Assembly (NCBI RefSeq): GCF_054482595.1
Contig: NZ_CM137008.1
DNA length: 64,000 nt
Reading direction: 5' to 3' (one strand)
The position numbers were made by a program, and so were the translations under genes. The notes under the pieces are model-generated. The model was not told the DNA's origin. It saw only the letters and a program-made list of their open reading frames with translations, and ran no database searches. Of this stretch, positions 16,190-57,077 are shown one piece after another (within the stretch, counting starts at the first letter, position 1; each line of letters begins with the position of its first letter).

Positions 16190-16270
16190 CTACAAACGAT
16201 CGTTTATAACGATCGATATGATAGTAACGATCGATGTATTCTATTAACTTGAGAAACACAACGCAAGGGG
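16190..16270 (-). promoter_or_regulatory. Sigma70-like promoter followed by three clustered GATC sites (agn43-type Dam/OxyR switch candidate)
   Basis: On minus strand: -35 TTGCGT, 17-bp spacer, -10 TAGAAT, then GATC at about 16229, 16211 and 16198 within 35 bp; RBS aggaagg before dynamin ATG. Confidence 0.55.
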
Positions 16271-16353
16271 ACAACCCGGGTATGGCTGCGTTTGCATAGT
16301 GTTTTCATGGAGTTAAAAATCTGTAACAACAGCCTGGTACATCACCACCGGGT

Positions 16354-17265: not shown

Positions 17266-17309
17266 CGGAAAGGTGGCGGGGGATTCACGGAAATAATATC
17301 TGTCTGAAA

Positions 17310-33231: not shown

Positions 33232-33339
33232 GCTTCACCTCACTTCAGTTACGTTAATATCTGTCGATGTATATTGATGTGATAATCACCATAAAGTGGC
33301 GGGGAAAAGCAAAAAAAATCAAAAATAGCCGGAGAAAAG

Positions 33340-33500
33340 GTAAGCGTTAATGGAGAATCATATTGATGCTTATTTATTGGTGAGAACTACGTTCCATGGC
33401 AGGAGTTCATCAATACGGTTGGAAGGTTATTCCGGCAGTACGCTCAGGATATGGCGCAGATACTCTTCCGGATCAATGTCGTTCAGAAGGCAAGTGCCGA
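33340..33500 (-). mobile_element. IS66-family remnant: 3' end of transposase plus terminal IR (second copy, inverted relative to 6480-6690)
   Basis: Minus-strand translation ends ...VVLTNK*; terminal gtaagcg at about 33340; related but not identical to the first copy. Confidence 0.55.
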
Positions 33501-33842
33501 TAAGCCCATACAACAGTGCACTGCGCTCGCCGTCGAAGAACATAAAGTTTTTATTTCCGAGACAGATGGCACAAAGGGCTTTTTCCGCGGCATTATGTCT
33601 GCCTCCGCCTGACCGTCAACACTGTAATAACAGAGTGCGCCCCACTGATTCAGTACACAGCTGAACCATTCTCCCAGTCTGGATTTTTGGACAGCGTGGC
33701 ATTTTTCTCCACCATCCACGCATGCAGTGAGTCCAGTAACAGTTTGCTCTTCCTCTGCCTGACCACAAGATGTTCTGGTTCTGGCATACTGAATTTGGCC
33801 ACCTGAGCATAGGTAATATGCTCACCTTAGAACAACACAGAT

Positions 33843-34600
<758 letters not shown>

Positions 34601-34774
34601 GCAGCGATTTTCCCAGCGTGGTGCGTCTTTTGCATTTTACTGGTTCTGAGTTATCAATTATCTGTTCACTAATGACTACTCTAAAAAGTTGTATCAATTT
34701 AAGTGATATAGGGAGTCTGGAGATTCAGGGGGCCAGCCTAGGAACATTGGTTACATTTTTAGTTTCCAAACATT

Positions 34775-36175
34775 TTATTGTTCGAACTTCGGAGCAATCA
34801 GATTATCCAGATTGAATGTCTTCTCCCATTCTTCCTGTGTGAGTAGCTTACGTTCGACAACCACTATCTGATGGAGGGATTTGCCTGTATGGTATGCTTC
34901 GTGCGCCATTTCAGAACACACCTTATATCCCAGATGTGGCTTCAGGAGAGTCACAATACCGCAGGAATGCATTACCATCTCTGCAGTTCGATCGGAATTA
35001 GCTGTAATGCCATCAATGCATTTAGTTCGGAGTGTGTTACAGGCATTCGTCATCACCTTGAGTGAGGTGAACAGCGCAAAGGTGATGACCGGCTCCATAA
35101 CGTTAAGCTCAAGCTGACCAGCAGATGCCGCCAGCATCACTGTGGTGTCCAGCCCCTGAACCAGGAAGCAAGACTGGTTTGTTACTTCCGGGATAACGGG
35201 GTTAACCTTACCAGGCATAATGGAAGAACCCGGTTGCAATTGAGGCAGGTTAATTTCAGCCAGGCCGCAACGGGGGCCTGAAGCAAGCAGTCGAATGTCA
35301 TTACAAACCTTGGTAAGCTTCACAGAGAGGCTCTTCATGGCCGAACTGAGTGCAACATATGCACCACAGTCGCTTGTGGCAGCGATGAGATCTTCACTGT
35401 TCCTGAAATTAATGCCTGTGATCTGGGCCAGATATTTCACGGCTAAAGCGGGATAATCCGGGTGAGCGGTAACACAGGTACCAATCGCAGTAGCACCAAG
35501 GTTTACAACCCGCAGGTGTTCCTGTGCATTACGGATGACCCGAATTTCATCATTAATTGTAAAACCCCAGCCATGGAACTCCTGGCCGAGAGTCATTGGC
35601 ACTGCATCCTGCAGGTGAGTACGTCCCATCTTGAGCACTGTGCTGAACTCGTCAGCCTTTTTGTAGAATGCTCCTACGAGGTGTTCAACAGCTTCAAGCA
35701 ATACATTGCTTCGCAGCAGTAATGCCAGATGTAATGCTGTCGGATATGTATCATTGGTGGACTGACCAAAATTAGCATGGTCGTTTGGCGAAACGCGTTT
35801 GTAATCCCCTTTAACGCCACCAAGTTTTTCTGCAGCAAGATTGCAAATCACTTCGTTGCAGTTCATATTGGTTGACGTTCCGGCTCCCCCCTGAAGCCAG
35901 TCGGTCACAAACTGTTCCCGGTACTTACCATCAATTAATTGGTCGCAAGCCCAGATTAAAGCATCCGCAACATCAGCAGGAATTGTACCTAACTCCTTAT
36001 TAGCCATCGCAGCTGCTTTTTTCACATAACCGAAGGCAATGATGAAGAAAGGCTCCTGACTCATTGGCATTTCAGTGATATGGAAATTATCTTTTCCACG
36101 AAGTGTCTGAACACCATAATAGCAATCATCCGGAATTTCACGCTCACCAAGGAAATCGCTTTCAATACGAGACAT
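34775..36175 (-). CDS. Aspartate ammonia-lyase family protein (copy 1)
   Basis: 466 aa, fumarate-lyase signature GSSIMPGKVNP; about 99 percent identical to 55677..57077. Confidence 0.85.
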   Translation of the reverse strand: MSRIESDFLGEREIPDDCYYGVQTLRGKDNFHITEMPMSQEPFFIIAFGYVKKAAAMANKELGTIPADVADALIWACDQLIDGKYREQFVTDWLQGGAGTSTNMNCNEVICNLAAEKLGGVKGDYKRVSPNDHANFGQSTNDTYPTALHLALLLRSNVLLEAVEHLVGAFYKKADEFSTVLKMGRTHLQDAVPMTLGQEFHGWGFTINDEIRVIRNAQEHLRVVNLGATAIGTCVTAHPDYPALAVKYLAQITGINFRNSEDLIAATSDCGAYVALSSAMKSLSVKLTKVCNDIRLLASGPRCGLAEINLPQLQPGSSIMPGKVNPVIPEVTNQSCFLVQGLDTTVMLAASAGQLELNVMEPVITFALFTSLKVMTNACNTLRTKCIDGITANSDRTAEMVMHSCGIVTLLKPHLGYKVCSEMAHEAYHTGKSLHQIVVVERKLLTQEEWEKTFNLDNLIAPKFEQ

Positions 36176-36397
36176 AATATTCTAACTCCATTATTTGAAA
36201 ACAATGTGACAATAACAAATTGTTTAACCGGAGCTATGCTCTCGGAATTTGAATTCTTACATCATTGAAATAACATGTGATATCAATCTGTCAGAATTCT
36301 TCTGACAGTCAGTAACTGAATGCAGATTAACTGCCTGACTAATTATCAAATAGTAACTCTGTAACTACTTCCATAAAGAATGAAAATTATGATTCTA

Positions 36398-37696
36398 TCA
36401 GACCATCATTGGTGCAATCACAAACCCAAATGTCACTCCTGCAATAACACCACCCAACCCGGGTAGCATAAATGGGTGATTTAATAAATAATTGCCCACA
36501 CGGGTTGTGCCGGTAGTATCAAATTCCATCGCGGCGAGTGATGTTGGATACGTTGGAAGCACGAATACTCCCGTAACGGCAACATAAGATGCAAGAATTG
36601 CCCAGGTTGGTATGTTGAGTGCTACAGCCAGAGGAATAATTAACGGCGTAGTCGCTCCCTGTGAGTAAAGTAAAGCGCAGGTAAAAAAAAGAACTAATGC
36701 TAAAAGCATCGGATAAGTTTGTAAAATATCACCGGCGATATCTTTGATCTCAGTTAAATGCGCATCAATAAAGGTGGTACCTAAGGTTACAATACCAAGA
36801 ATCACTGCCAGCGAACTCATTCCAGCACGAAATGTGGAGGTCAGAATAATGTCATCAGTAGACATCTTACACAGTATTACCATCAGGCAGGCAGCAGAGA
36901 GCATGCAAATAATAATAATATCGCGCGTTTCCATCGGTTTGCTGATATCAAAACCCGGACGCAATTGGGGGAATGCAGCAAGAATAACAATGGCGATCGT
37001 CGCCAGCATGAATAATCCGACGGAAAGCGTTGCACCAGGTTTGATGCTGTTATTATTCTCGTATTTTTGCACCAGACCTTTTTGCAGACGTTCAAGATAT
37101 ACTTCGTCATCTTGTAATTCACACCCCTGTCGGGAGGCGATAAAAGCAGCAACCATCGCGGCGACAAAAGAGGTGGGAAGGCATACCGACATCACCTGAA
37201 TAAAACTGACGCCATTAACCTCCATAATAGTGAGCATAGCTGCCATTGCGGCACTGATTGGTGAGCCAGAAATTGCAACCTGTGAGGCGACAACTGAGCC
37301 AGCGAGTGTGCGGGAAGGCCGGATACCGGACTCTTTTGCTACTTCAGCAATTACCGGCAGTGTGGAGAAAACAATAAACCCGGTACCGGCCATAATGGTC
37401 ATTAACCAAGTGATAATCGGTGCGATTATGTTGATATATTTTGGGTTACGTCGCATGAAATTACTGGCTAAACGTACCAGATAATCCATCCCACCTGCCG
37501 CCTGTAAGGCTGAAGCTGCCACAACTACGGTCATAATAATCAGGATCACATCGACTGGCGGTGATCCCATAGGCAGACCAAATCCCAGAGTCAGGATCGC
37601 AAGGCCAAGACCGCCGCATAAACCAATGCCGATTCCTCCCTGACGAATACCAAAAAATATTGCGCCAAGTACAACGATAATTTCCAGCCAAACCAT
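36398..37696 (-). CDS. Anaerobic C4-dicarboxylate transporter, DcuA/DcuB family
   Basis: 432 aa polytopic membrane protein with DcuA-like sequence. Confidence 0.8.
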   Translation of the reverse strand: MVWLEIIVVLGAIFFGIRQGGIGIGLCGGLGLAILTLGFGLPMGSPPVDVILIIMTVVVAASALQAAGGMDYLVRLASNFMRRNPKYINIIAPIITWLMTIMAGTGFIVFSTLPVIAEVAKESGIRPSRTLAGSVVASQVAISGSPISAAMAAMLTIMEVNGVSFIQVMSVCLPTSFVAAMVAAFIASRQGCELQDDEVYLERLQKGLVQKYENNNSIKPGATLSVGLFMLATIAIVILAAFPQLRPGFDISKPMETRDIIIICMLSAACLMVILCKMSTDDIILTSTFRAGMSSLAVILGIVTLGTTFIDAHLTEIKDIAGDILQTYPMLLALVLFFTCALLYSQGATTPLIIPLAVALNIPTWAILASYVAVTGVFVLPTYPTSLAAMEFDTTGTTRVGNYLLNHPFMLPGLGGVIAGVTFGFVIAPMMV

Positions 37697-37754
37697 GATG
37701 TTCTCCGTTGTAAATATAATCTTTGTAAAATAACTTTCTGGCTGTGATTTAGAA

Positions 37755-38474
37755 TTATTGAGTTAAATGTTGATCTTTTCCGATACGATTTTCATACCAT
37801 TTTATTCCTGCGCGAACGAGTGAAGCGGTTGAATCAATATAGCGTAAAGGTTGATCTTTAACGGCTTGTGACAGAATAATGGGAATTTCCGTACAACCAA
37901 GAATCAAGATCTCTGCTCCGCGGGAAAATAAATTTTCAGCCTGCTCTTCCATCAATTTTTGCGCATGTGTAACATTTCCCGCTTTAAGTGAATAAATGCT
38001 TTTCATCACATTTTTTTGGCCATCTGCATCCGGGGTGATATAGTTAAACCCTAACGATTCAATTCCTTTCTGGTATAATCCCATATACAGCGTGGCATCA
38101 GTGGCCAGGAGGCCAATTCTAGTTTTACCACAGACGCGAACTTCATCGACCGTAGTATCTATGATACTTAGTATATCAATATGGCAAGCATCTTTTAGTT
38201 CTTTAAACCAATAGTGTGCGGTATTACAGGGAATAACAATACATTCTGCTCCTGCATCTTCCAGTTTATGCATATAGTCACGCATAACGGGTAAAGGCGA
38301 GAGCCCGTTATGCATTAATGCATCGGTACGGTCAGGAATATCCGGGATAGAAGAAATAATTAAAGGTATATGTTCTTGATCTCGTTGTGCTGCTGTAAAG
38401 GTGACAAATTTATTAAATAAGTCGACAGTGGCGGCCGGCCCCATTCCACCGAGCACACCGATTAAACCTTTCAC
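37755..38474 (-). CDS. Aspartate/glutamate racemase family protein
   Basis: 239 aa; two catalytic Cys motifs (IPCNTAH, LGCTE). Confidence 0.8.
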   Translation of the reverse strand: MKGLIGVLGGMGPAATVDLFNKFVTFTAAQRDQEHIPLIISSIPDIPDRTDALMHNGLSPLPVMRDYMHKLEDAGAECIVIPCNTAHYWFKELKDACHIDILSIIDTTVDEVRVCGKTRIGLLATDATLYMGLYQKGIESLGFNYITPDADGQKNVMKSIYSLKAGNVTHAQKLMEEQAENLFSRGAEILILGCTEIPIILSQAVKDQPLRYIDSTASLVRAGIKWYENRIGKDQHLTQ

Positions 38475-38813
38475 AATACTTACCTCTCAGAAAATCAATG
38501 CTCATAAACTTAAAAAACCATTTCTCCTTTTTTAACAGTCTCTAAAGGCTATGAGAAATGCAATGATGTACAATGCAATGCAAGACTTGCATGATGTAGT
38601 TTTGCAATATACATGAACCATATACTATTGTTGCATGAAGACCTATCATAATGATGAAAATAAACGCTTTTGGGAGAAGTGTTAAACTGGTTTAGATACA
38701 GAAAACGAATGGATTATGCATAAAACGAATAACTTAAATATGCTATCTGCATTCATTACCCCGGTTTTCGGGGGGTATACTAACTAAAATTTGATAATAC
38801 TTGGATAATAGAA

Positions 38814-39713
38814 ATGAAAAATATAGAGACCAAATGGTTATATGATTTCCTGACACTGGAAGCCTGTCGCAATTTCTGTCAGGCAGCAAAAGATCGTAAC
38901 CTTTCACAACCAGCATTCAGCAGACGAATAAAAGCGTTAGAGTCAGCTATAGGTGTTGTTTTGTTCGATCGTACAACCTCTCCTTTACAATTAACTGAAG
39001 AGGGTAGGCTTTTTCACTCCCAGACACGCAGTTTAGTGCAACAGCTTGAATGCAATCTGAATGAGTTAGGGGGGGATAATTCATTCAATTTGCCTAATAT
39101 TAAGATTGCAGCTGCGCACTCATTATCCCTCAGCATGCTACCTAAACTTCTGCACTCACTCACCACCTTAGGCGGAGACTTTATCTATCATGTTGAGGCT
39201 ATTGATGTCGTCCAGGCCGTAAATACGTTACGAGAAGGGAAGAGTGACTTTATTATTTCATTTCGAGATGAGGAGTTTATGCAATCGCCATTTTGTTGTA
39301 TAAAACTGTTTGAATCTGAGTTGTATCCGGTATGTGCTGCTGATCAACAGGGAAAACCGATTTTCGATCTTACCAATTCACAGGCTCCTTTGCTCGACTA
39401 TACTCCAACTTCTTATATGGGCAGACTGGTTAATCGTCATTTGGCAGAACAGGGAGGGATAGCCGGACACACAATATTGGTATCTTCAATGAGTGAACTA
39501 CTAAAAAATATGGCACTCAATGGACTTGGTATTGCCTGGCTCCCTCTCTGGTCAATCGCGGATGAACTGAACACAAAACGACTTGTGTGTCCGTGGCCTG
39601 CTAAATGGGCAGTGCCTATTCAGGCTTATATTTATCGTATGGATACTCGGCTGAACAAAACGGCTGAACACTTTTGGACGATTTTACGAAATAACATTAA
39701 AGAGAATAGCTAG
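38814..39713 (+). CDS. LysR-family transcriptional regulator
   Basis: 299 aa; N-terminal HTH (QPAFSRRIKALE); divergent from racemase operon. Confidence 0.85.
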   Translation: MKNIETKWLYDFLTLEACRNFCQAAKDRNLSQPAFSRRIKALESAIGVVLFDRTTSPLQLTEEGRLFHSQTRSLVQQLECNLNELGGDNSFNLPNIKIAAAHSLSLSMLPKLLHSLTTLGGDFIYHVEAIDVVQAVNTLREGKSDFIISFRDEEFMQSPFCCIKLFESELYPVCAADQQGKPIFDLTNSQAPLLDYTPTSYMGRLVNRHLAEQGGIAGHTILVSSMSELLKNMALNGLGIAWLPLWSIADELNTKRLVCPWPAKWAVPIQAYIYRMDTRLNKTAEHFWTILRNNIKENS

Positions 39714-40222
39714 AAACATCGTGGACAGTTTTTGTTGAGCACGACAAATCCACGTTTTTCTGGGGGTGAAGGGGGGGAATTCGTTAAACTGGATGTCTTT
39801 TGCTTTAATCAGTTCATCTCCTTCAGGATAATTCTGGCCATTGAGATCACTTTGAGAGGTATTTTTTTCTCTTTTCACATAGTAAATAATAACATTGTTT
39901 AATTAATAACAGAAAATATACTAAAATCAATAATTGTAATAATAAATTATTTGTTGTCCCAGATAAGTTAAGTGTCATTAAAATGCTGGACAATCCTCGC
40001 GTAACGGTATTTAATGACTACAGCACGTTCCAGGAAAAGCAGTGGAAGCAAATATTGGTCATTATGTCGAAAACACCGGAAACGTACTCTATATTGTGTA
40101 GTCATTTATTCAAATGACAGCGTATAAACAAATTGATCAGAATCACATTTTTTTGTGAAAATCATTGTCGAGAGGCAACATTTCATAGTAAGTGTATCCT
40201 ACAGGTCATGTATAAAACCTAC

Positions 40223-40932
40223 ATCATGTAAACAAACTCATCGAATTGCACCTCCTGTTTGTGGAGGTGCTTTTTTGTGCACAGCTCCCCAGCCAGGCTG
40301 GGGGTTCCGGAAAGCTTTCAGTTTTGAGCCAGTTATTAAAACCTCTTTTGATTTGTTAAAACACCTTGCGGTATGGCAACAGCAAGTGTCAAACAAAAAA
40401 TCAAAAGGGGGACCCAATGGGGAACGAAAAGAGCTAGCGCACCCCGATGGAACTGTAAATATCACATAGTTTTTGCGCCAAAATACCGAAGACAAGTGTT
40501 CTACAGAGAGAAGCGTAGAGCAACAGGCAGTATTTTGAGAAAGCTGTGTGAGTGGAAAAGCGTACGGATTCTTGAAGCTGAGTGCTGTGCAGATCATATC
40601 CATATGCTTGTGGAGATCCCGCCCAAAATGAGCGCATCCGGCTTTATGGGATATCTGAAAGGGAAAAGCAGTCTGATGCTTTACGAGCAGTTTGGTGATT
40701 TGAAATTCAAATACAGGAACAGGGAGTTCTGGTGCAGTGGGTACTAAGTCGATACGGTGGGTAAGAACACGGCGAAGATACAGGATTACATAAAGCACCA
40801 GCTTGAAGAGGATAAAATGGGAGAGCAGTTATCGATTCCCTACCTGGGCAGCGCGTTTATGGACCGTGAGTAACGAAGTTGGATGCAAATGTCAGATCGT
40901 GTGCGCCTGTTAGGGCGCGGCTGGTAAGAGAG
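40223..40932 (+). mobile_element. IS200 (IS200/IS605 family) inserted in dgoT
   Basis: Left-end hairpin cacctcctgtttgtggaggtg; TnpA with HxH motif; dgoT reading frame runs into IS sequence at about 40932. Confidence 0.7.
40373..40870 (+). pseudogene. tnpA: IS200 Y1 transposase TnpA, frameshifted
   Basis: Track ORF 124 aa (WNCKYHIVFAPKYRR...DHIHMLVEIPPK); canonical N-terminus and C-terminus lie in other frames. Confidence 0.65.
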
Positions 40933-41391
40933 CCTTATAGGCGCATGACCAGACGTATAAAAACCAACGGCAGAAGCGCGTTCATGTTCCGGGAACCAGC
41001 TGGTCACCATCCGGTTATTGGTCGGGAAAGCGGGCGCTTCGAAAATACTGGTTATCGCGCGCAGACCAATTAATGACATTAATCCCGTGGCAAAGCCCTG
41101 GAATAACGTCGCCACTGACCAGCCAAATATCGCAATAAAATAAGTCACGCGTGAACCTACGCGATCTAAAAACCAACCGCCGGGGATCTGACATAGCGTA
41201 TAAAGCCAGGCGAAGGCCGAAAATACATAGCCCATTTCCGCTTTGGTAATGCCGAACTCTTCCTGAATATGGGCGGCAGCCACGGCCAGGTTAGCGCGGT
41301 CAACATAACAAATGACCACCGTAATAAAGATCATCACCAGCGTCAGATAACGCCGACGCCCCGGCTTTGCTGCATTAACGGGAATATCCAT
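40933..41391 (-). pseudogene. dgoT: D-galactonate transporter DgoT, 5' fragment truncated by IS200
   Basis: [35 protein letters not shown]... MFS N-terminal region; 3' part of gene absent. Confidence 0.8.
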
Positions 41392-41510
41392 AGCGAGCTT
41401 TCTCCTGATTTTGGGCATAGCGAAGCCGCTCACCATGCCCTGTAATTTACAGAGGGTTATATTTTTGTATTGCTGTTTTAGTGCCCGATGAGGGGCTTAC
41501 GTGGCAGGAA

Positions 41511-42659
41511 TTACCACTCTGCTACGCTGTTATCTTCATGACGCCAGAGCGGATTACGCCAGTCCGGGGCATTTTTACTGAACTCAATAACTTTAGCTTC
41601 GTCGATTTCCACGCCTAAGCCCGGTTTCGTTAGCGGTTTAAAGAAGCCGCCGACCATGCTGAAGTCCTCTTTGTTTTTCACAAAGTCGAGTAACTCCGCG
41701 CCTTTGTTGTAATGAATGCCCATACTTTGTTCCTGAAGTACGGCGTTATAGGAAACAAAGTCGATATGCAGGCAAGCTGCCAGTGCAATCGGTCCGAGCG
41801 GACAGTGCGGCGCAAGGGTCACGTCATAGGCTTCTGCCATTCCGGCAATTTTGTAGCATTCGGTAATACCGCCTGCGTGGGAGAGATCCGGTTGCAGAAT
41901 CGAAATACCACCCGCCTCCAGCACACGTTTAAAATCGAAACGTGAGAACATGCGCTCACCCGCCGCCAGTGGAATATGCGTTTGTGCCGCCAGTTTCGGG
42001 TAGTATTCGGCCTGTTCTGCCAGCACCGGCTCTTCAATAAACAGCGGGCGATACGGTTCCAGTTCTTTAATCAGTACTTTCGCCATCGGCGCGCTGACGC
42101 GACCGTGGAAATCAAGACCAAACTCAATCTGATTGCCAAAAGCTTCACGAATTTGTGCCACGGTGTTGACCGCCGCATCTACCGCGCGGGAGTTATCAAT
42201 TAGCCCCAGTTCTTCACAACCATTCAGTTTGAAGGTATCAAAACCGATTTCGCGCAGGATTTTTATTCCGTCGATAACATTCGCCGGACGATCGCCGCCG
42301 ACCCAACTGTAGGCTTTAATTTTGTCACGCACCAGGCCGCCCATCAGTTGCCAGACCGGCGAATTCAGCACTTTGCCTTTGATATCCCATAACGCCTGGT
42401 CGATCCCGGCAATGGCGCTCATCAGGATTGGACCTCCACGATAAAATCCGGCGCGATACATCACTTGCCATAAGTCATTGATGCGCGATGGATCCTGACC
42501 AATCAAATAGTCACCCAGCTCGTGAACTGCCGCTTCCACCGTACGGGCGCGGCCTTCGATCACGGGCTCGCCCCAGCCGACCACGCCTTCATCGGTTTCA
42601 ATTTTCAGGAACATCCAGCGGGGAGGTAAACGATACGTGGTAATTTTGGTGATTTTCAT
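41511..42659 (-). CDS. dgoD: D-galactonate dehydratase
   Basis: 382 aa enolase-superfamily protein; operon context dgoRKAD. Confidence 0.9.
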
Positions 42660-43273
42660 TGCACTGCCTCTCGATACGCCTTAACAAATGCTGCTGCCTG
42701 CTGCGCGGTGCGTTCTACGGACTGCCCGGCGCGATAGAGATCGCTGCCTAAGCCTGCCCCTGCACAACCTGCGTCTATCCACTGCGCCAGGTTTTCTGGC
42801 GTCACGCCGCCAACGGCAAAGACTGCGATGTCCGGTGGTAATACCGCTTTTAACGCTTTGATGTATTGCGGACCAAAAGCCGATGACGGAAATATTTTCA
42901 GCGCCTGAGCGCCCGCGTCGAGCGCGGTAAAGGCTTCGGTCGCCGTCGCGCAGCCGGGGCAAACGGTCATGCCGTAGCCCACCGCACGGCGGATCACTTC
43001 ACTATGGATATTGGGCGTAACGATGAGCTGGCAGCCCATCCTGGCGAGCACATCGACCTGTTCAGGTTTCAGTACCGTACCTGCGCCAATCAACGCCTTG
43101 TCGCCGTACGCATCAACGATGGCGGGAATGCTCTGCTCCCATTGTGGGGAATTCAGCGGGATTTCAACTGCGTCGAACCCGGCGTCAATCACCGCGCCAA
43201 CATGCACCAGCGCCTCGTCGGGCGTAATGCCGCGCAAAATGGCGATCAGCGGGAGTTTAGTTTGCCACTGCAT
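42656..43273 (-). CDS. dgoA: 2-dehydro-3-deoxy-6-phosphogalactonate aldolase
   Basis: 205 aa KDPG-aldolase family; operon context. Confidence 0.88.
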
Positions 43274-44135
43274 GAGCGATGCTCCTTATACCAGCCTGAA
43301 ATGCCTTGTCGCCCGCCACCACCGCCACGTCGCAACCCATCGCCTGAAAGGCTTGCTGGTAGCGCGCGGTCAGCGATGTTCCGGCGACAAGGGTGATGGC
43401 GTGTTGATGGGTCACATAGTCGCGCATACTGGCAACCTCTGCGCCAATCAACAAACCAGAGAGAAATTCGCTGACCTGTTCGCGGGGAAGCGTTCCCAGC
43501 ACATGCGAGGCGCGAACTTCAAAAAGCTGCGGCAATATGGCGGGCGCATTAAGGCCACGCTCAAGGCCAGCCGCGAAGGCATCGGCAGAGTTTTCCTGCG
43601 GCGGCAAACCTGCGCCAATCAATGAGTGATTTAACAGTAAATGATGTAATTCACCGGTCATTACGGTGCGAAAATCGTTGATTTGCTGGCTATCGGCCTG
43701 CACCCATTTGCAATGGGTTCCGGGCATAACATAAAGAGAGGAAGGAGCCAGAGCACGCGCGCCGATCAATTGTGTTTCTTCGCCGCGCATCACATTGTGG
43801 TTATCGTCATGAGAAACGCATAATCCGGGAATAATCCAGATATTGTCGCCAACCGACGTTAATTGTTCGCCAATAGACGAAAAACGGACAGGAACAGATA
43901 AATACGGCGCAACTTTCCAGCCGACATTGCTGCCAACCATTCCTGCCATTACCACTGGCGTTTTCTCTTCACGCCAGTCGGTCGTGACTTCTGCTAACAC
44001 CGCAGCCGGAGATTTTCCGTTCAGGCGCGTGACGCCTGCTTCTGATTGCCTGCTCTCCAGGCAGTGGTCGCCCTGATAAAGCCAGGCGCGCAGATTGGTC
44101 GATCCCCAGTCAATTGCGATGTAGCGAGCTGTCAT
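43257..44135 (-). CDS. dgoK: 2-dehydro-3-deoxygalactonokinase
   Basis: 292 aa; operon context. Confidence 0.88.
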   Translation of the reverse strand: MTARYIAIDWGSTNLRAWLYQGDHCLESRQSEAGVTRLNGKSPAAVLAEVTTDWREEKTPVVMAGMVGSNVGWKVAPYLSVPVRFSSIGEQLTSVGDNIWIIPGLCVSHDDNHNVMRGEETQLIGARALAPSSLYVMPGTHCKWVQADSQQINDFRTVMTGELHHLLLNHSLIGAGLPPQENSADAFAAGLERGLNAPAILPQLFEVRASHVLGTLPREQVSEFLSGLLIGAEVASMRDYVTHQHAITLVAGTSLTARYQQAFQAMGCDVAVVAGDKAFQAGIRSIAHAVAN

Positions 44136-44821
44136 GTGATTTCCTTTAACCTTCGTGTCGAGCTGGCGATCATGGTAAGCGCCGCCTGCTCTGCCGCATC
44201 GCCGTCCTGATGCCGTATCGCATCGAACAGCGCCTTTTGTTCCTGGAGCGTTTGCGGCATGTTGGCCTCATCACCCATCCAGGTTCGTTCAAATACCGCC
44301 CGCTGCAGCGAACTGATCGCAATGCTAAGTTGCTGTAACACCGGATTATGTACCGACTGCAGCACCGCCTCGTGGTAGCGAATATCCGCTTCGTTAAACG
44401 CTTCGCGGTCCTGATTGTTGGCAATCATCTCGTTCAGCGCCGATTCAATCTGCGCCAGATCGCTGGAAGTCGCGCGCTCTGCTGCCCAACGGGCAATCGC
44501 CGGTTCCACCAGATTTCGCACTTCGCTCATGGCACTGATAAGTCGTGGGTCGTAGTCGTTTTCCAGCACCCATTGCAGTACGTCAGTGTCGAGGTAATTC
44601 CACTGGTTACGCGGTGCCACAAACGCGCCGCGATAACGTTTCATTTCAATCAGCCGCTTCGCCATCAGCGAACGGAACACCTCACGGATGATGTTGCGCG
44701 AGGTTGCGAACTCCTCACAGAGCTCCGCCTCAGCCGGAAGCGGCGAGCCTGGCACGTATTTGCCGTGAACGATCTGTTTACCCAGCGTAATGACGATGCG
44801 ATCGGTTTTATTGAGAGTCAT
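44132..44821 (-). CDS. dgoR: GntR-family regulator of galactonate operon
   Basis: 229 aa, N-terminal GntR HTH, FCD C-terminal domain. Confidence 0.88.
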   Translation of the reverse strand: MTLNKTDRIVITLGKQIVHGKYVPGSPLPAEAELCEEFATSRNIIREVFRSLMAKRLIEMKRYRGAFVAPRNQWNYLDTDVLQWVLENDYDPRLISAMSEVRNLVEPAIARWAAERATSSDLAQIESALNEMIANNQDREAFNEADIRYHEAVLQSVHNPVLQQLSIAISSLQRAVFERTWMGDEANMPQTLQEQKALFDAIRHQDGDAAEQAALTMIASSTRRLKEIT

Positions 44822-45173
44822 GGAGAGTCCTTGTGCTCTGTATGTTCTTCTCTACTTTACCCCGATCGATGCATAACGCGGCAACTTTGTAGTACCAGCG
44901 TGATAACGTTCGCGTTTGCTGTGTGCGTAATGTAGTACAAGCTTATATTGCTGTACTACAATTTAGATCGCAAAAAGAACAATGCATAAAAAAATGACAT
45001 GCGTCGGGCAGAAATGGAAAAGGGATATCAGGCGCTAAACAGGAGGGAAAGAAGAGTATGCTTTCAACGACTTAGTACTCAGACAGCAGCTTTTCCAGCG
45101 TCAGCGATGCGAATGAGGTAGTTCTGATTCATGACCGTTTTTATAATCCGGCTATGATATTTTTACCACATTG

Positions 45174-45506
45174 TCAGCGCGTTAAGGCGTGATGTTTTTG
45201 GCTGACGCTAGCCCAGCTTACTAAGGAGCATTGCCAGCTGCGGGCGGGTAAAGGATACCCCGCCGTCACGTACCGCAAGCCAGATAAATTGCCTTCCTCC
45301 TGGCGCTTGGTGAAAAGACACAGACCATCAGCCCAGAATATTTTAACAGTGTCACCCCGTCGGCCTCGGAAGATAAACAGGTGGCCGAAGAAGGGATTAT
45401 AATTCAGCACATGTTGACCCTGTTTTCCCAGTCCGTTGAAGGATTTACGCATATCAGCTACCCCGGCAATGAGGCAGATACGGGTACCGGATGGTAGTGA
45501 GATCAT
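45174..45506 (-). pseudogene. IS66-family TnpB (orf2) remnant
   Basis: MISLPSGTRICLIAGVADMRKSFNGL...HLFIFRGRRGDTVKIFWADGLCLFTKR matches IS66 orf2; C-terminus divergent/truncated. Confidence 0.65.
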
Positions 45507-45940
45507 CGTCTCCTCCTGGCTAACTCACGGATTAACACCTTGAGCAGCTCTGGTGAAGGATTTTCCAACACATCATGTTACTGAGACGGAACTCAACCTT
45601 ACAGGAACTGACACTGACTGTGTTATGGGGGGAAATGGATAAAGATGGAGCAATAGACATCATCGTATTTTTCTGTTCATTCGGCGTTATCTCAACAGGT
45701 AATAATTTAACGCCAGCGTCAGAAGTAGTCGTTACAGGAAGACGCCGCGAAACAACACAGGTTCAGGAGAATAAGGTAGAGCGTCTATAGTCCTGTTTCC
45801 TCCATCTAGGATGTCTGATGGAAATTCATCAGATACACTAAGGATCCCCATAAAGTATTTTATTGGCACACATCAGACATCCTTTAGGTATCCAGCAAGT
45901 TATTGAACTATTGCGTCGTCTCGTTCAAACTTCTCTTTTA

Positions 45941-47238
<1,298 letters not shown>

Positions 47239-47665
47239 GTATCCTCTGCGATGCCGAAGTCGGGGTTCTACCCTTGAGCTCTTCCTTAAGCATGCCTATT
47301 CTGGATAGCATTACACTGCTTTGAGGGTATCCAGCAACGATAAGAACTGACTAGGGGGTGGAGTTCACCTGCTTCACAATTAGTAAGTTTGCTGTTATTT
47401 AGCTTATTATATGGCTCATCACTGTGACGTTTTTTAGCTAGGAAATGCAATGAAAATTGTGCAGACTAGTCTCTCCGAATCTGTTACTCAGCATCTTGCC
47501 GAGCGCATCCTGTGCGGCGAACTGCCAGCAGGTAGCGTGCTGCCTGGCGAAAATGAACTGGCAACAGTTTCCAGGGGTGGTTGAACTCCGCCTTCGCAAA
47601 ATAAGAGCTTGGCGAAGGATATCGTTACTGTGGCGCAGTTCACGATTTTCACGCTCCAGCGTCTT

Positions 47666-47923
47666 TCAGACGCTGACGTTCAGCGGTGGTGAGTCCACCA
47701 TCACCGCCCCCGGTATCCCACTCATGCTGGTTGTACACCAGACACGCAGAGTCTCCGGTGTACAGCCAATCTTTGGGACGATGGAACAAATTGCTGCCCA
47801 TTGGGAGTCATATTCGCCCTGATTTTCCAGAACCATACGAACTGTCCGTTGACGGACTTCGGGGGAAAAACGAGTATTTTTAGCCATCCTGTTTACCTCT
47901 TTCTCAGGGAATTTAGTCTCCAA
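47666..47923 (-). pseudogene. IS629/IS1203-like OrfA remnant
   Basis: [50 protein letters not shown] matches IS629 OrfA N-terminus, then diverges. Confidence 0.6.
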
Positions 47924-48480
47924 GATTTCCGGGGCGCTTCACTTAGTTATTAATTAAATACCCCCCCGTTTCTTAAGTGGATTTGTTTATTCACATCTCG
48001 TGAATATTAGAACATTATATGATTGTACATCCATATAGAGTTCCGAGGCAGAACGAGAGTGAATCATTGATTGATGCCAACCATAAGGTAATTATCTGGA
48101 AGAGGCCATAGTCTTCCGGAAGATATGAAAATAATATTTTCTTTTGTTCTGCGTCGTGTTATTTTTTCTTTGTCCGTTGGCAAGACGGATAGATAAATAT
48201 TAAAACAAACAGACAAGATTCAGCATAGTTTACCTTCCGTCCCCTGCATCCTGGGGATTTTTTTTACTCAGTGATGGTAATCATACAGCCACAGATAACG
48301 GGAGCGATGTGTATTTTTCGGATCCACAACAGGACTGTTTTGAACAGAGGTATATTTTCCAGCAGTGACTGTCACTGTGGTAGCAAAATAAATATCCTCC
48401 GGCATAGCCGGAGGTTTTTCAAATGGGTGATGCTGCCAACTTACTGATTTAGTGTATGATGGTGTTTTTGAGGTGCTCCA

Positions 48481-48756
48481 GTGGCTTCTGTTTCTATCAG
48501 CTGTCCCTCCTGTTCAGCTACTGACGGGGTGGTGCGTAACGGCAAAAGCACTGCCGGACATCAGCGCTATCTCTGCTCTCACTGCCGTAAAACATGGCAA
48601 CTGCAGTTCACTTACACCGCTTCTCAACCCGGTACGCACCAGAAAATCATTGATATGGCCATGAATGGCGTTGGATGCCGGGCAACCGCCCGCATTATGG
48701 GCGTTGGCCTCAACACGATTTTCCGCCATTTAAAAAACTCAGGCCGCAGTCGGTAA
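48481..48756 (+). CDS. insA: IS1 InsA
   Basis: 91 aa, recognised InsA sequence. Confidence 0.9.
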
Positions 48757-49178
48757 CCTCGCGCATACAGCCGGGCAGTGACGTCATCGTCTGCGCGGAA
48801 ATGGACGAACAGTGGGGATACGTCGGGGCTAAATCGCGCCAGCGCTGGCTGTTTTACGCGTATGACAGGCTCCGGAAGACGGTTGTTGCGCACGTATTCG
48901 GTGAACGCACTATGGCGACGCTGGGGCGTCTTATGAGCCTGCTGTCACCCTTTGACGTGGTGATATGGATGACGGATGGCTGGCCGCTGTATGAATCCCG
49001 CCTGAAGGGAAAGCTGCACGTAATCAGCAAGCGATATACGCAGCGAATTGAGCGGCATAACCTGAATCTGAGGCAGCACCTGGCACGGCTGGGACGGAAG
49101 TCGCTGTCGTTCTCAAAATCGGTGGAGCTGCATGACAAAGTCATCGGGCATTATCTGAACATAAAACACTATCAATAA
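48675..49178 (+). CDS. insB: IS1 InsB (normally expressed as InsAB' by frameshift)
   Basis: 167 aa, recognised InsB sequence. Confidence 0.85.
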
Positions 49179-49549
49179 GTTGGAGTCATTACCCGCTGCA
49201 GGTATAAAATGAAGGTTTTCTGATTTTTCAGGGGCTATTGCAGGCCCCTTTTTACATCATAAATAATGATATCACTTAATGTATTACAAAATGTTATAAC
49301 CAGGGATATTCCCAGAATTTATAATTTCCTCCTGTACTTTTCACCATGACACAGAAACGCTATACATCGCGGTATTTCTGCAGGGTACGGGCTGGATATG
49401 GGTAAGCGTCTCGGTAGAGAGACGGTTAATGAGTCTAAGAATTACTCTTCTTTTAGCTGTGAAATAAGGAGGCGTTAAGAATATTTATTAAATAAAGGCC
49501 CGCTTTTAAAATGGGCCTTAAGGGCAAGACGATGTATAAAATATTTTAT

Positions 49550-50581
49550 CTATTGTTCATAAATTGATACGATAGCTTTACCATCGTTGCCGATAGTTCC
49601 ACGATACATCCCTTCTGTATTGAAACTCATAGTATAATTACCATTCTTATCTAGAACAATGACACCACCACTACCATTAATGTTTTTAACTTCATCAAGC
49701 GCATTTTGAGCTGCTTCTTTCAATGGTGTATTTTTATATTTCACCTGAGCAGCAATATTGTATGCAGTTGAAGTTCTAATAAACATTTCTCCAGTACCTG
49801 TAGCAGAAACAGCAACGGTATTATTATCGGCATAGGTTCCTGCTCCAATTATTGGCGAGTCACCTACGCGTCCGTAACGTTTATTTGTCATACCTCCTGT
49901 TGATGTTCCAGCTGCCAGATTACCATCTTTGTCCAACGCGACTGCTCCAACAGTTCCATATTTATAGTCGTAGTTCTTTGGGGGGAGTAAAAGAGATGCT
50001 GATTTACCATTATGATCAAGGGTTATTTTTTCGTCTTTTAAAGCGTTCTGTAGCTGTTGCCAACGGAAATCAGTTTTGAAATATGCTGGCTCAACCATAA
50101 CTAAGCCTTGCTCTTTTGCAAATAGTTCCGCACCATTAGAGATCATTAATACATGAGGGCTTTTAGTCATAACTGCATAAGCAGCGTTTATAGGGTTTTT
50201 TATGGTCGTCACTCCTGCAACGGCTCCGGCCATTTTGGTTTTTCCATCCATAATTGCAGCATCAAGTTCGTTTTTGCCATCATGAGTAAAGACAGCGCCT
50301 TTTCCAGCATTGAAGAGGGGAGAGTCCTCCATAACATTAATTGCACGCTGAACAGCATCAAGGCTACTTCCTCCACTATTAAGCACAGCATACCCAGCAT
50401 TTAGTGCATCTGTTAACTTTTCTCTGTATTGTTTTTCTTGTTCAGGTGTAATAGTATCTTTTGTTATGGTGCCAGCTCCACCATGAATTACAAGGCGTAT
50501 TGGCGTTTGAGATTCAGCGTGAGCATATCCTATACACAATGCGAAGGCTGCCATTACTGTTATACCTTTTATTTTATTCAT
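49550..50581 (-). CDS. Periplasmic isoaspartyl peptidase / L-asparaginase (Ntn-hydrolase family)
   Basis: Signal peptide MNKIKGITVMAAFALCIGYAHA; Ntn-hydrolase motifs (GTVGAVALD); track ORF has 10 extra N-terminal codons. Confidence 0.8.
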   Translation of the reverse strand: MNKIKGITVMAAFALCIGYAHAESQTPIRLVIHGGAGTITKDTITPEQEKQYREKLTDALNAGYAVLNSGGSSLDAVQRAINVMEDSPLFNAGKGAVFTHDGKNELDAAIMDGKTKMAGAVAGVTTIKNPINAAYAVMTKSPHVLMISNGAELFAKEQGLVMVEPAYFKTDFRWQQLQNALKDEKITLDHNGKSASLLLPPKNYDYKYGTVGAVALDKDGNLAAGTSTGGMTNKRYGRVGDSPIIGAGTYADNNTVAVSATGTGEMFIRTSTAYNIAAQVKYKNTPLKEAAQNALDEVKNINGSGGVIVLDKNGNYTMSFNTEGMYRGTIGNDGKAIVSIYEQ

Positions 50582-50699
50582 AACTCCTCCTTTTGTCTGA
50601 AGTTTATACAATATAAATATTTAAACTTTTTCCATTATGTTTATTTGACTTCTATCAAAAAAAATTATGCTAATTCGATTTTGCAAAATTTAATTGCAC

Positions 50700-52005
50700 G
50701 CAAATAATATGCACATATTTTTTAGTGTAATGAGTGACTTTTATGGATAGGTTCCCGCTGACCTCTATCACCATACTTCCCCCCGCTTTCAGTAGGACAT
50801 CCGTGTCTGACTTTATATCGAGATTTCATGTGGAAGAGATAAATGCCGGACCTTGAGAAAGAAATATAACTCCCCAGTCTCGTTGAACCCTCTTGTTGAT
50901 CCACTTTTCAAGTACGTAACGATCCAAGTTCCGCCTGCCGTCCAAGGCGTTTGGTGAAGCAGCACGGTCCGTCACTGTCAGCCCACAACTTCCGCTCCCA
51001 CGGGCGCGCCACCGCGCTCTTCTTCTCATTCACCTTCTGTTTCAGTTTGCTCTCCACGAACGCCCTGATGTCCTTCAGCAGATGGTCGCCCGCTTTCCGG
51101 CTGCTTACGTAGATGTTGCAGTCGTCTGCGTAGCGGCAGAAGCTGTGTCCACGATGGCGCTTAACTGCTGCGCTATCGCCTGCTGGATAAGCCTGTCCAC
51201 CACCGTCGGGATGCCTAAGGTTCTCACGCCGCCATCCGGCTTCGGGATATCCATCCGGCGTATTGCCCGCGGCTGGTAGTTTCCGTCAATCAATACCTGC
51301 CATACGCTGCGCCAGTTCTTCTTCAGCCACGGTTTCAACTCCGCCACACCTTTGTTTTCCACCACGCGCTGATAAGCCAGCATCAGGTTTTCTCTCGTTA
51401 TCACCGCTTCCATCGTCAGCGGCACTTCCGCTTTCGTTTGCCCACCCGCCGCCGTGCTGATTTCAGCGCCATCATGCAGCCCTGACGGATACTGTCCGTC
51501 TCCTCTGCCGCTGGCCGCAGTTGCCTGCGCGTGTGCTTCATTAATCATCATCGGGTTCGGATGTCCTAATCACAGTTAATCATGTTCGGCCCTTCATGCT
51601 GCCGGTTTTGCAGCACTACTACGGCGTCGGCTGACTTCTGCCGCCCCATCCCGGCGCCTCACGGCACCGGTAGCACACTGGCAGGGCGACAGATCTCCCG
51701 GGGTAATTCACGCGACTTTCCTGCTTATGCCTGTCGGCTTTACGTCACAGCGTTCCGTGTGAGTATCGGGCTTTGGTGATTTGTGCCACCTTACCCTGCT
51801 GCGCCGCCTTAACCGCTTCCTGTTCGTCAGGCCAGCATTTTGCATCCGGCTTCCTTCAGATTTCACCTCGCGATGAACACCCTTGCCTTCCGCTAACACT
51901 TCCCCTCACCGGGTGTGTGGAGGACTTTCACCTCTTAGTCGTTCTTCAGCCACCACAGTTGAAGAACAGCGCCAGTCACGGCGCTACGCGCCATGCCCGG
52001 CGCAC
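50700..52005 (-). mobile_element. Group II intron fragment (5' domains plus truncated intron-encoded protein)
   Basis: Minus-strand GTGCGCC 5' consensus at about 52005; RT-like ORF 51105..51551; 3' part missing. Confidence 0.5.
51105..51551 (-). pseudogene. Group II intron reverse transcriptase/maturase, N-terminal fragment
   Basis: ...TRENLMLAYQRVVENKGVA...RRMDIPKPDGGVRTLGIPTVVDRLIQQA typical RT domains 0-2; truncated. Confidence 0.65.
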
Positions 52006-52196
52006 ATATGCAACGAGCGCCGATGTAAACGGCACCCGTAATATTTTAGCTGCAGGGCACGCCGTACTTGCCTGTAAAGAGATGGTGCAGTCAGGCCTTT
52101 TGTTTAAGCAGGAGCCCACCGAAATGATTCCGGCAATAGCCTGATTAGCAGGAATCCACATCCTTCTGGGCGTGGAGGATGACAATCTAAAACAAG

Positions 52197-55676: not shown

Positions 55677-57077
55677 ATGTCTCGTATTGAAAGCGATTTC
55701 CTTGGTGAGCGTGAAGTTCCGGATGATTGCTATTATGGTGTTCAGACACTTCGTGGTGAGGATAATTTCCATATTACTGAAATGCCAATGAGTCAGGAGC
55801 CCTTCTTCATCATTGCCTTCGGTTATGTGAAAAAAGCAGCTGCGATGGCTAATAAGGAGTTAGGTACAATTCCTGCTGATGTTGCGGATGCTTTAATCTG
55901 GGCTTGCGACCAATTAATTGATGGTAAGTACCGGGAACAGTTTGTGACCGACTGGCTTCAGGGGGGAGCCGGAACGTCAACCAATATGAACTGCAATGAA
56001 GTGATTTGTAATCTTGCTGCAGAAAAACTTGGTAGCGTTAAAGGGGATTACAAACGCGTTTCGCCAAACGACCATGCTAATTTTGGTCAGTCCACCAATG
56101 ATACATATCCGACAGCATTACATCTGGCATTGCTGCTGCGAAGCAATGTATTGCTTGAAGCTGTTGAACACCTCGTAGGAGCATTCTACAAAAAGGCTGA
56201 CGAGTTCAGCACAGTGCTCAAGATGGGACGTACTCACCTGCAGGATGCAGTGCCAATGACTCTCGGCCAGGAGTTCCATGGCTGGGGTTTTACAATTAAT
56301 GATGAAATTCGGGTCATCCGTAATGCACAGGAACACCTGCGGGTTGTAAACCTTGGTGCTACTGCGATTGGTACCTGTGTTACCGCTCACCCGGATTATC
56401 CCGCTTTAGCCGTGAAATATCTGGCCCAGATCACAGGCATTAATTTCAGGAACAGTGAAGATCTCATCGCTGCCACAAGCGACTGTGGTGCATATGTTGC
56501 ACTCAGTTCGGCCATGAAGAGCCTCTCTGTGAAGCTTACCAAGGTTTGTAATGACATTCGACTGCTTGCTTCAGGCCCCCGTTGCGGCCTGGCTGAAATT
56601 AACCTGCCTCAATTGCAACCGGGTTCTTCCATTATGCCTGGTAAGGTTAACCCCGTTATCCCGGAAGTAACAAACCAGTCTTGCTTTCTGGTTCAGGGGC
56701 TGGACACCACAGTGATGCTGGCGGCATCTGCTGGTCAGCTTGAGCTTAACGTTATGGAGCCGGTCATCACCTTTGCGCTGTTCACCTCACTCAAGGTGAT
56801 GACGAATGCCTGTAACACACTCCGAACTAAATGCATTGATGGCATTACAGCTAATTCCGATCGAACTGCAGAGATGGTAATGCATTCCTGCGGTATTGTG
56901 ACTCTCCTGAAGCCACATCTGGGATATAAGGTGTGTTCTGAAATGGCGCACGAAGCATACCATACAGGCAAATCCCTCCATCAGATAGTGGTTGTCGAAC
57001 GTAAGCTACTCACACAGGAAGAATGGGAGAAGACATTCAATCTGGATAATCTGATTGCTCCGAAGTTCGAACAATAA
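55677..57077 (+). CDS. Aspartate ammonia-lyase family protein (copy 2)
   Basis: 466 aa, differs from copy 1 at 3 residues; GSSIMPGKVNP signature. Confidence 0.85.
   Translation: MSRIESDFLGEREVPDDCYYGVQTLRGEDNFHITEMPMSQEPFFIIAFGYVKKAAAMANKELGTIPADVADALIWACDQLIDGKYREQFVTDWLQGGAGTSTNMNCNEVICNLAAEKLGSVKGDYKRVSPNDHANFGQSTNDTYPTALHLALLLRSNVLLEAVEHLVGAFYKKADEFSTVLKMGRTHLQDAVPMTLGQEFHGWGFTINDEIRVIRNAQEHLRVVNLGATAIGTCVTAHPDYPALAVKYLAQITGINFRNSEDLIAATSDCGAYVALSSAMKSLSVKLTKVCNDIRLLASGPRCGLAEINLPQLQPGSSIMPGKVNPVIPEVTNQSCFLVQGLDTTVMLAASAGQLELNVMEPVITFALFTSLKVMTNACNTLRTKCIDGITANSDRTAEMVMHSCGIVTLLKPHLGYKVCSEMAHEAYHTGKSLHQIVVVERKLLTQEEWEKTFNLDNLIAPKFEQ

Follow-up and report, generated by a model that had tools for sequence, protein, structure and literature searches.

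Inversion Isomers and Mosaic Alleles of a Near-Identical, Inverted Pair of Accessory Aspartate Ammonia-Lyase Genes in Escherichia coli

The Island and Its Two Aspartase Genes

A stretch of Escherichia coli DNA of 64,000 nucleotides (nt) (contig NZ_CM137008.1 of assembly GCF_054482595.1; hereafter the window) begins with dacD-sbmC-yeeA and CP4-44-type genes and continues into an island riddled with insertion sequences (ISs). The window represents an E. coli accessory island for catabolism of asparagine, aspartate, and C4-dicarboxylates. The island bundles AnsB, two copies of the aspartate ammonia-lyase (aspartase) AspA, three Dcu-family transporters, PepT, DcuC, and an Asp/Glu-family racemase; a second asparaginase-family gene, an orphan dcuR, and a second dgoRKAD set are also present. 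This gene content is compatible with fumarate respiration fueled by asparagine or aspartate. The two aspA genes, designated copies A and B, form the arms of an inverted repeat and are the subject of this report.

The repeat search revealed one long inverted repeat in the window, with arms (34775-36225 and 55627-57077) that are 99% complementary; each arm is 1451 nt long, and 19,401 nt lie between them (features of the locus are collected in Table 1). Base-by-base comparison placed the limits of homology exactly 50 nt 5′ of the ATG and exactly at the TAA stop codon; immediately beyond these points, 25-nt bins show only 16-52% identity. Of the 1451 nt, 14 differ between the arms, 11 in the coding sequence (CDS) and three in the shared leader (-21, -18, and -4), which is the more diverged part (3/50). 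A match in exact register over 1451 nt rules out chance. The initial annotation described 466-residue lyase genes at 34775..36175 (minus) and 55677..57077 (plus), inverted, near-identical, and different at three residues; the arms and the open reading frames (ORFs) confirm this, the changes being I14V, K28E, and G120S. It was also right that identity stops abruptly upstream, although the distance is exactly 50 nt rather than about 40; the feature that it placed at 34735-36215 is real, with ends 10-40 nt off those of the true arm. The RefSeq product of copy A is WP_000086499.1. A pair of near-identical inverted genes on one replicon, with homology confined to the gene, is characteristic of paralogs of the tufA/tufB type.

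The surroundings of the two copies are unlike. The transporter genes are not placed as mirror images, Dcu(A) being upstream of copy A and DcuA(B) downstream of copy B, and their products are divergent paralogs with 43.3% amino acid identity, as had been proposed from the sequence at the outset. IS debris adjoins arm A only. A weak likeness (13/19) is seen in the 19 nt after both stop codons, a stretch too short for testing. The leader contains a 7-nt palindrome (AAACAAT-N13-ATTGTTT) that occurs within the window in the two arms only; as a shared regulatory site it found no support, since two or more matches arose in 13 of 100 shuffles.

The 1451-nt arm is present in 247 of 5,426 complete E. 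coli genomes (4.6%), with a median of two copies. Linkage was surveyed in the complete genomes using each arm with 1.5 kb of unique flank on both sides: the native arm-A linkage is contiguous in 198 genomes and the native arm-B linkage in 204, and in 191 genomes at least 80% of the whole 24.9-kb two-arm stretch aligns colinearly; in TUM1880 and EEC_W5 it forms a single piece of 99.9% identity. Repeats of 1.45 kb can confuse short-read assemblers, so that a single aspA might be placed twice or a misjoin induced at the repeat; given these counts, the two unique flanks of each arm, and the 14 sites that tell the arms apart, the probability of such an artifact is negligible. The caveat of assembly collapse attached to the initial annotation is not applicable to a two-copy structure found in about 200 independently assembled complete genomes, and the existence of one copy only, named there as the outcome that would overturn it, is contradicted by the 191-204 complete genomes with both copies and unique flanks.

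Natural Inversion Isomers

Crossover within the repeat should create two new linkages, R1 (dcu(A)-aspA-dcuA(B)) and R2 (pepT-aspA-IS remnant); both were built and searched in the complete E. coli genomes. An uninterrupted R1 was found in 18 genomes at 99.7-100% identity and an uninterrupted R2 in 17 records, every one of them within the R1 carriers. The arm-to-arm block (34775-57077) corresponds in strain EC1515 to one minus-strand alignment (22,303 nt, 99.94%), while the left and right flanks match the window on the plus strand. The internal gene set is fully reversed in the annotated EC1515, CLSC36, S1-IVC-02-A, PRO_A-1370, and LS45 and in plasmid pLR4-171k. The arms had been predicted to serve as a substrate for inversion of the intervening DNA, and the R1 and R2 carriers together with the EC1515 block bear this prediction out. 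Both isomers, with reciprocal junctions inside the repeat, are thus found in natural genomes, again as in pairs of the tufA/tufB type.

The form in the window, with racemase-dcu-aspA running into IS debris and pepT divergent from aspA-dcuA-ansB, is that of about 92% of carriers. Roughly 8% of two-copy carriers have the inverted form, in which racemase, dcu, aspA, dcuA, and ansB are co-directional and pepT is divergent from an aspA copy that runs into the IS debris. The inversion crossovers map to the 945-nt 3′ block of the arms; because they fall within this identical stretch, recombination between the arms is predicted to be RecA-dependent.

Inversion has happened independently more than once. 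Plasmid pWP4-S18-07_1 has both native linkages and its sister pLR4-171k is inverted; they differ by two single nucleotide polymorphisms (SNPs) in 6.4 kb of unique island sequence, and both are ~140-160 SNPs from the chromosomal islands. Among chromosomes, the inverted EC1515 has the short 19.4-kb, IS1-containing variant common to the window and TUM1880 (both native) and differs from TUM1880 by five SNPs per 15 kb; the inverted CLSC36 and LS45 have the long variant, as in native WP4-S18-08, and are 12-15 SNPs from EC1515 and TUM1880. The inverted module of S1-IVC-02-A lies at a different chromosomal site (tRNA-Phe). The sister plasmids, the short and long variants, and the tRNA-Phe site together give a minimum of two independent inversions and a likely number of three or more, short of a full phylogenetic count.

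Probable Gene Conversion and Mosaic Alleles

Differences between the two copies are clustered, 13 lying in the first 507 nt and one in the remaining 945 (Fisher p = 1e-5). A comparison of 25 aspA copies from 14 replicons and the window yielded 12 alleles, which form nested, non-reciprocal mosaics in both directions. Copies linked to pepT are B-type up to nt 456 in the window, TUM1880, EC1515, and CLSC36, up to 333 in S1-IVC-02-A, and up to 126 in PRO_A-1370; in strain 4238 and both plasmids they have no B-type states. Copies linked to dcu(A) are pure A or have B-type states at 321-456 (TUM1880, CLSC36, and LS45). In every genome, the "new" states of a copy match its partner copy and the exchange is non-reciprocal, as conversion predicts; such exchange between copies is a further characteristic of tufA/tufB-type pairs. 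The initial annotation proposed recent duplication or conversion of the lyase alone: only the gene and its 50-nt leader are indeed shared, and the clustering and mosaics favor conversion over a merely recent copy.

Two single-copy lineages help to order these states. The single copy of 1218KP, in arm-B linkage, equals copy B over the first 507 nt (0 differences) and differs from A and B at 17-18 sites in the last 945 nt (18/945 for B, where B equals A); its differences from A are even along the gene (13/507 and 17/945, p = 0.34). The single copy of STEC639, of the locus-A lineage, is 64 sites from A; at each of the 13 5′ sites that separate A from B it has the B/1218KP state, and at 13 of the 3′ sites at which A and B share a state unlike that of 1218KP it agrees with 1218KP. 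Over the full length of the gene, the alleles of the single-copy lineages are diverged by about 2% and 4%. These states are most simply read as two former alleles ~2% apart, with A later overwriting the 3′ two-thirds of B; A would then be the probable donor in this old conversion. Strain 1218KP was considered as a clean "unconverted B" outgroup and rejected; its whole locus is patchily divergent, and it polarizes the mosaic without proving the direction of conversion.

A simple and very recent duplication of aspA, with ordinary later point mutations and no conversion, would explain 99.0% identity with sharp boundaries, and a homologous Citrobacter module without aspA indicates that aspA was added to the module at some point. 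Such a history is nevertheless very unlikely. It does not predict the uneven distribution of differences, and since both single-copy outgroups have the B state at all 13 of the 5′ sites, it requires a dense block of 13 changes in copy A beside 945 nt without any. Mosaic, non-reciprocal alleles in all four block combinations among genomes also speak against it, as does the locus A of STEC639, which has aspA among flanking genes diverged by 9-16%, so that the association of aspA with dcu(A) must be old.

The sister plasmids link conversion to inversion, as reported for tuf. In the native pWP4-S18-07_1, the dcu-linked copy has -37A, -18A, 897G, and 1293T and the pepT-linked copy 33A and 804T; in the inverted pLR4-171k, the dcu-linked copy has -37A, -18A, and 897G and the pepT-linked copy 33A, 897G, and 1293T. 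The two products in pLR4-171k change parent at different points (897-1293 and 33-804), and the derived SNP 897G, in one copy of the native plasmid, is in both copies of its inverted sister; this combination marks a crossover with an adjacent conversion tract.

Strain 4238 (NZ_CP103533.1 3733925-3776445) has an expanded repeat, with aspA-dcuA(B)-ansB-dcuR flanking the segment at either end; its two aspA copies are pure A-type, leader included. Recombination there looks like a break-induced or half-crossover event that ran beyond the aspA homology.

The AspA Family and a Probable Sutterellaceae-Like Source

The island AspA scores 680.4 bits against the NCBIfam model NF008909 (aspartate ammonia-lyase; cut-off 510) over residues 2-465. 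It falls below the equivalog cut-off of TIGR00839 (aspA; 645 versus 681.2 bits) and is therefore placed as a family member, without certification as an exact equivalent of canonical AspA. Among solved structures, the aspartases 6wng (524 bits), 1jsw (512), and 1j3u (482) outscore the best fumarase (360 bits); residues 316-325 read GSSIMPGKVN, and the SS-loop signature of the fumarase/aspartase superfamily is GSSxMPxKxN. Judged by these scores, the protein is a member of the aspartate ammonia-lyase family, with a predicted conversion of L-aspartate to fumarate and ammonia.

The island gene (466 amino acids) is distinct from the core 478-amino-acid gene of E. coli. Both exact proteins are found in E. 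coli, in ~1000 contigs each; the nearest proteins outside E. coli are from Duodenibacillus and Sutterella, with 88-89% amino acid but ~76% nt identity and a G+C content of 57-61%, versus 47.5% here. The low nt identity beside high amino acid identity, together with the G+C gap, indicates that the direct donor is unsampled or the transfer old. A DcuA(B)-type gene (73-86% amino acid identity) follows aspA in nearly all of ~50 Sutterellaceae loci, an order that marks aspA-dcuA(B) as the donor-like unit; Dcu(A) is ~43% identical to the Sutterellaceae DcuA(B)-type proteins. In the 11 closest Sutterellaceae loci the coding regions alone align (aspA ~76% and dcuA ~70% nt identity); the upstream and intergenic DNA does not align and so does not inform the -50 boundary, and the upstream non-coding DNA shows no likeness to the E. 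coli leader or between species. The dcu(A) gene is 86.5% identical in nt sequence to a gene annotated as an "anaerobic C4-dicarboxylate transporter" at ~4.39 Mb on an E. coli chromosome not known to carry the island; that gene is taken to be the core dcuA.

Origin and Behavior of the Pair

STEC639 carries hypT-racemase-dcu(A)-spacer-aspA as one unit, diverged from the window by 9-16% in the genes, 4% in the spacer, and 3-4% in aspA. After its aspA stop codon follow 162 nt that are 88% identical to the aspA_B-dcuA(B) intergenic region of the window and the first dcuA(B) codons. The upstream junction of copy A and the downstream junction of copy B were thus once on a single copy; the novel junctions are those between the pepT flank and position -50, and between the stop codon, a stretch of 33 nt, and the IS2-like end. 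Sequence comparison therefore favors the "inverted" linkage, dcu(A)-aspA-dcuA(B), as the probable ancestral one, with the majority form seen in the window as a later flip. 1218KP would most simply be a deletion derivative of the form in the window; the opposite order of isomers is possible. The divergent single-copy locus of STEC639 is from pSTEC639_1 (CP061233.1), a 1.0-Mb record deposited as a "plasmid" and typed as non-mobilizable; the label is used here as deposited, and the replicon might be secondary or part of a chromosome.

A LysR/racemase/dcu module homologous to that of locus A is found in Citrobacter at 74% nt identity, without aspA and followed by fruBKA; at this identity Citrobacter is not the direct source. 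The idea that copy A is a converted older resident paralog is unsupported in Citrobacter, whose module has no aspA.

Our analysis very probably reflects a paralogous accessory aspA pair in inverted orientation, in which conversion keeps the copies alike and crossover flips the segment between them, both outcomes being present in natural genomes. The copies are real paralogs in a mosaic, IS-riddled island, each joined to a different transporter module: copy A follows the racemase-Dcu(A) genes, and copy B precedes DcuA(B)-AnsB, the order observed in Sutterellaceae, the relatives from which this aspA lineage is proposed to derive. With 1.45 kb of shared sequence in inverted orientation, the copies can recombine homologously with two outcomes. 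Non-reciprocal conversion, limited to the interval from -50 to the stop codon, homogenizes the copies and has left mosaic alleles; reciprocal crossover inverts the segment and exchanges the genes downstream of each aspA promoter context, possibly with an effect on expression.

Several points weigh against this interpretation. It does not account for how a copy with ends exactly at -50 and the stop codon first came about; the IS debris next to arm A hints at an event involving ISs. The 630-nt stretch with zero differences between 1218KP and copy B may be an inter-lineage import, which leaves the direction of 3′ homogenization unproven, and the mosaic alleles could in principle stem from inter-strain recombination instead of intragenomic conversion. 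A few of the deposited "inverted" assemblies may reflect the choice of the assembler in mixed populations, but wholesale error is implausible, given that 17 independent records have the reciprocal junctions.

Two separate acquisitions from related donors, each joined to one transporter module and later homogenized over the full length, are very unlikely. The island is a patchwork of IS-bounded segments, and the 13/19 likeness past the stop codons and the 3/50 divergence of the leader could be unconverted edges of an older homology. That likeness is too short to be tested, however, and a shared leader would predict more shared flank than the dissimilar upstream DNA of the 11 closest Sutterellaceae loci provides. 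The contiguous single-copy arrangement in STEC639, dcu(A)-spacer-aspA-intergenic-dcuA(B)′, makes a second acquisition unnecessary.

The pair might also be a selected, recombination-driven metabolic switch. Each flip would join dcuA(B)-ansB to the end of the racemase-dcu(A)-aspA transcription unit or separate the two. This is improbable; if true, lineages would toggle two wirings of asparagine/aspartate-fueled fumarate respiration, and selection for flexibility, beyond gene dosage, would preserve the repeat. Highly improbable is a reversible switch akin to phase variation, toggling dcuA(B)-ansB between two transcriptional contexts and with the repeat kept for this purpose. Both isomers are recurrent and independent, inversion alters the genes downstream of each aspA, and scans around both arms found no terminator-like site between aspA and the next gene, so that read-through is plausible. 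Against such a switch stand promoter scans around both arms, with counts at or below chance, and the nature of the repeat, a 1.4-kb metabolic gene and not a pair of short recombination sites. In and beside the segment in several genomes, no invertase or site-specific recombinase gene is annotated, only IS transposase genes or fragments and group II intron maturase fragments. Across strains the ratio of isomers is about 92:8, and nothing points to switching within a strain. The tuf precedent also argues against a switch: in PMC6735719, inversions appear as a by-product of recombination and can be costly.

Two further candidates were rejected. A programmed invertible element (an invertase switch or shufflon) does not fit repeats that are a whole gene and a segment with no annotated recombinase gene. 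An IS-mediated inversion or composite transposon does not fit arms that are aspA rather than IS copies, with IS debris at arm A only.

Comparison with Known Systems

Of known systems, tufA/tufB of Salmonella and E. coli comes closest; it is likewise a pair of near-identical, inverted protein-coding paralogs with unrelated flanks. The precedent lies in their co-evolution by gene conversion (PMC6735719; PMC5485169), and PMC6735719 (citing Hughes 2000) reports that recombination between the copies also inverts the intervening region, conversion being linked to inversion. The aspA pair resembles tuf in bounded identity, mosaic alleles, the presence of both isomers, and one crossover with an attached conversion tract; it has every defining feature of a tufA/tufB-type pair that sequence can show. 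It differs in that tuf genes are core genes of essential function whose inversion has a measured fitness cost, whereas the aspA pair is accessory (in the 4.6% of complete genomes noted above) and horizontally acquired. Unlike tuf, its copies lie 14-33 kb apart in one island, are also found on conjugative plasmids, and persist as both isomers in wild strains.

Kilobase-size inverted repeats such as rrn operons and IS or prophage copies in enterobacterial chromosomes recombine to give natural inversion polymorphism. Here, by contrast, the repeat is a single metabolic gene, neither an rRNA operon nor a mobile element, and the inverted segment is small, lies within one island, and creates no replichore imbalance.

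The core aspA-dcuA locus of E. coli serves L-aspartate uptake and deamination, feeding fumarate respiration and nitrogen assimilation, and likewise pairs an aspartase gene with a DcuA-family transporter. The island differs from it in having two copies of a 466-amino-acid, Sutterellaceae-type AspA below the TIGR00839 cut-off and in its extra partners (racemase, AnsB, PepT, DcuC, and an orphan DcuR). An interaction of DcuA with AspA is reported in the abstract of a preprint (bioRxiv 10.1101/2021.03.01.433382).

Searches of the literature by gene names, RefSeq protein accessions, and the topic of inverted repeats and inversion found no description of this aspA pair. It offers a clean, population-scale natural case of concerted evolution coupled to inversion, recorded in hundreds of complete genomes; the behavior itself is well known, and here it involves a metabolic gene of the accessory genome in place of tuf, rrn, or IS copies. 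In practical terms, opposite orientations of the segment in different E. coli assemblies can both be correct at this locus, and its two aspA copies are not to be used as independent markers. The aspA-dcuA core of the island is related to that of gut Sutterellaceae, and the island is also on conjugative plasmids, one of which is labeled an NDM plasmid. Since aspartate-fueled fumarate respiration is linked, in published work, to gut colonization by Enterobacteriaceae, the island may be a colonization factor, a lead rather than a finding.

Neighboring Genes and Carriers of the Island

Table 1. Features of the inverted aspA pair and its surroundings (window coordinates)
Feature	Position	Strand	Remarks
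ISEc31-like IS3-family remnant	33767-34539		Part of the IS debris next to the 3′ end of arm A
IS2-like left end	34741 down to ~34540	minus	Begins 33 nt after copy A stop codon
Arm A: aspA copy A CDS (466 amino acids) and shared 50-nt leader	34775-36175 (CDS); 36176-36225 (leader)	minus	Basis: ORF, repeat search, NF008909
3′ two-thirds of arm A, nt 457-1401	34775-35719	minus	Partner 56133-57077; homogenized block, 1 difference/945 nt
5′ third of arm A, -50 to nt 456	35720-36225	minus	Partner 55627-56132 in arm B; 13 sites; sole A/B-differing part
Segment between arms	36226-55626		19,401 nt; either orientation in natural E. coli
Dcu(A) transporter	36398-37696	minus	Locus A, 5′ of copy A
Asp/Glu-family racemase	37755-38474	minus	Locus A, 5′ of Dcu(A)
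LysR gene	38814-39713	plus	Divergent from racemase-dcu(A)
dcuC	52197-53558	minus	
pepT	53555-54811	minus	
pepT-aspA intergenic region	54812-55626		815 nt; unique upstream flank of arm B
Arm B: shared 50-nt leader and aspA copy B CDS (466 amino acids)	55627-55676 (leader); 55677-57077 (CDS)	plus	
aspA-DcuA(B) intergenic region	from 57078		155 nt; 3′ of copy B
DcuA(B) transporter	57233-58567	plus	Locus B, 3′ of copy B
ansB, L-asparaginase II	59055-60101	plus	Locus B
Strong terminator-like hairpin	60109-60129		Just past ansB

The segment between the arms contains dcu(A), the racemase and LysR genes, dgoRKAD, IS debris, an isoaspartyl peptidase/asparaginase gene, dcuC, and pepT. The racemase scores above the cut-off of the NCBIfam equivalog "cysteate racemase CuyB" (250 versus 190 bits) and is called cuyB in newer RefSeq records. 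Its Dcu transporter and aspartase neighbors would better suit an aspartate racemase; the predicted substrate is uncertain. The LysR gene is annotated as hypT, the hypochlorite-stress regulator (NF007488, 384 bits). In Citrobacter, the homologous racemase-dcu genes likewise have a divergent LysR-family gene beside them, and the window gene more likely regulates its own module than serves as a second HypT.

The dgoRKAD genes for D-galactonate (41511-44821, minus strand) form a complete second set with 54.8% G+C inside the invertible segment, bordered by a truncated MFS transporter gene and IS fragments. Downstream of ansB is a DcuR-type response regulator (60695-61420, minus strand); no gene for a DcuS sensor kinase is annotated near DcuR in any examined locus.

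An IS2 copy starts on the plus strand at ~63172 and runs past the end of the window (64000). The sequence 34-233 nt past copy A (34540-34741) is 74% similar to the left end of this IS2, the two forming a weak inverted repeat. A further inverted repeat of 162 nt and 88% identity (6522-6683 and 33337-33498), spanning 26.6 kb, is another potential recombination substrate; its first arm overlaps a fragment annotated as a "transposase domain-containing protein" and its second lies in or beside an IS66-family transposase fragment (33427-33787). Between the CP4-44-type genes and an IS100, a minus-strand cluster (11771-18473) encodes a patatin-like phospholipase, an RdcB-family protein, a dynamin-family protein, a GTPase, and a hypothetical protein.

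In S1-IVC-02-A (NZ_CP145700.1 829000-877000), the inverted module lies at tRNA-Phe with a tyrosine integrase, on the yqgA-speC side; its position there, and not at dacD-sbmC-yeeA, shows that the module has moved between chromosomal island sites. Several genomes retain a single copy or mere fragments. One aspA copy of strain 64EVA (NZ_CP138399.1 2122838-2124287, a match of 1450 nt) is annotated as split into a "lyase family protein" and a "hypothetical protein"; this apparently disrupted copy suggests that a single aspA can suffice.

The two-copy module also occurs on large E. coli plasmids. The arm is present in six PLSDB records, five of them typed as conjugative; pLR4-171k_NDM, from the E. 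coli genome set and outside the PLSDB matches, is a further plasmid carrier. In the plasmid lineage the pepT, dcuC, dcuA(B), and ansB flanks are ~2% diverged, yet each of the two aspA copies lies 2-4 nt or less from the A allele of the chromosome.

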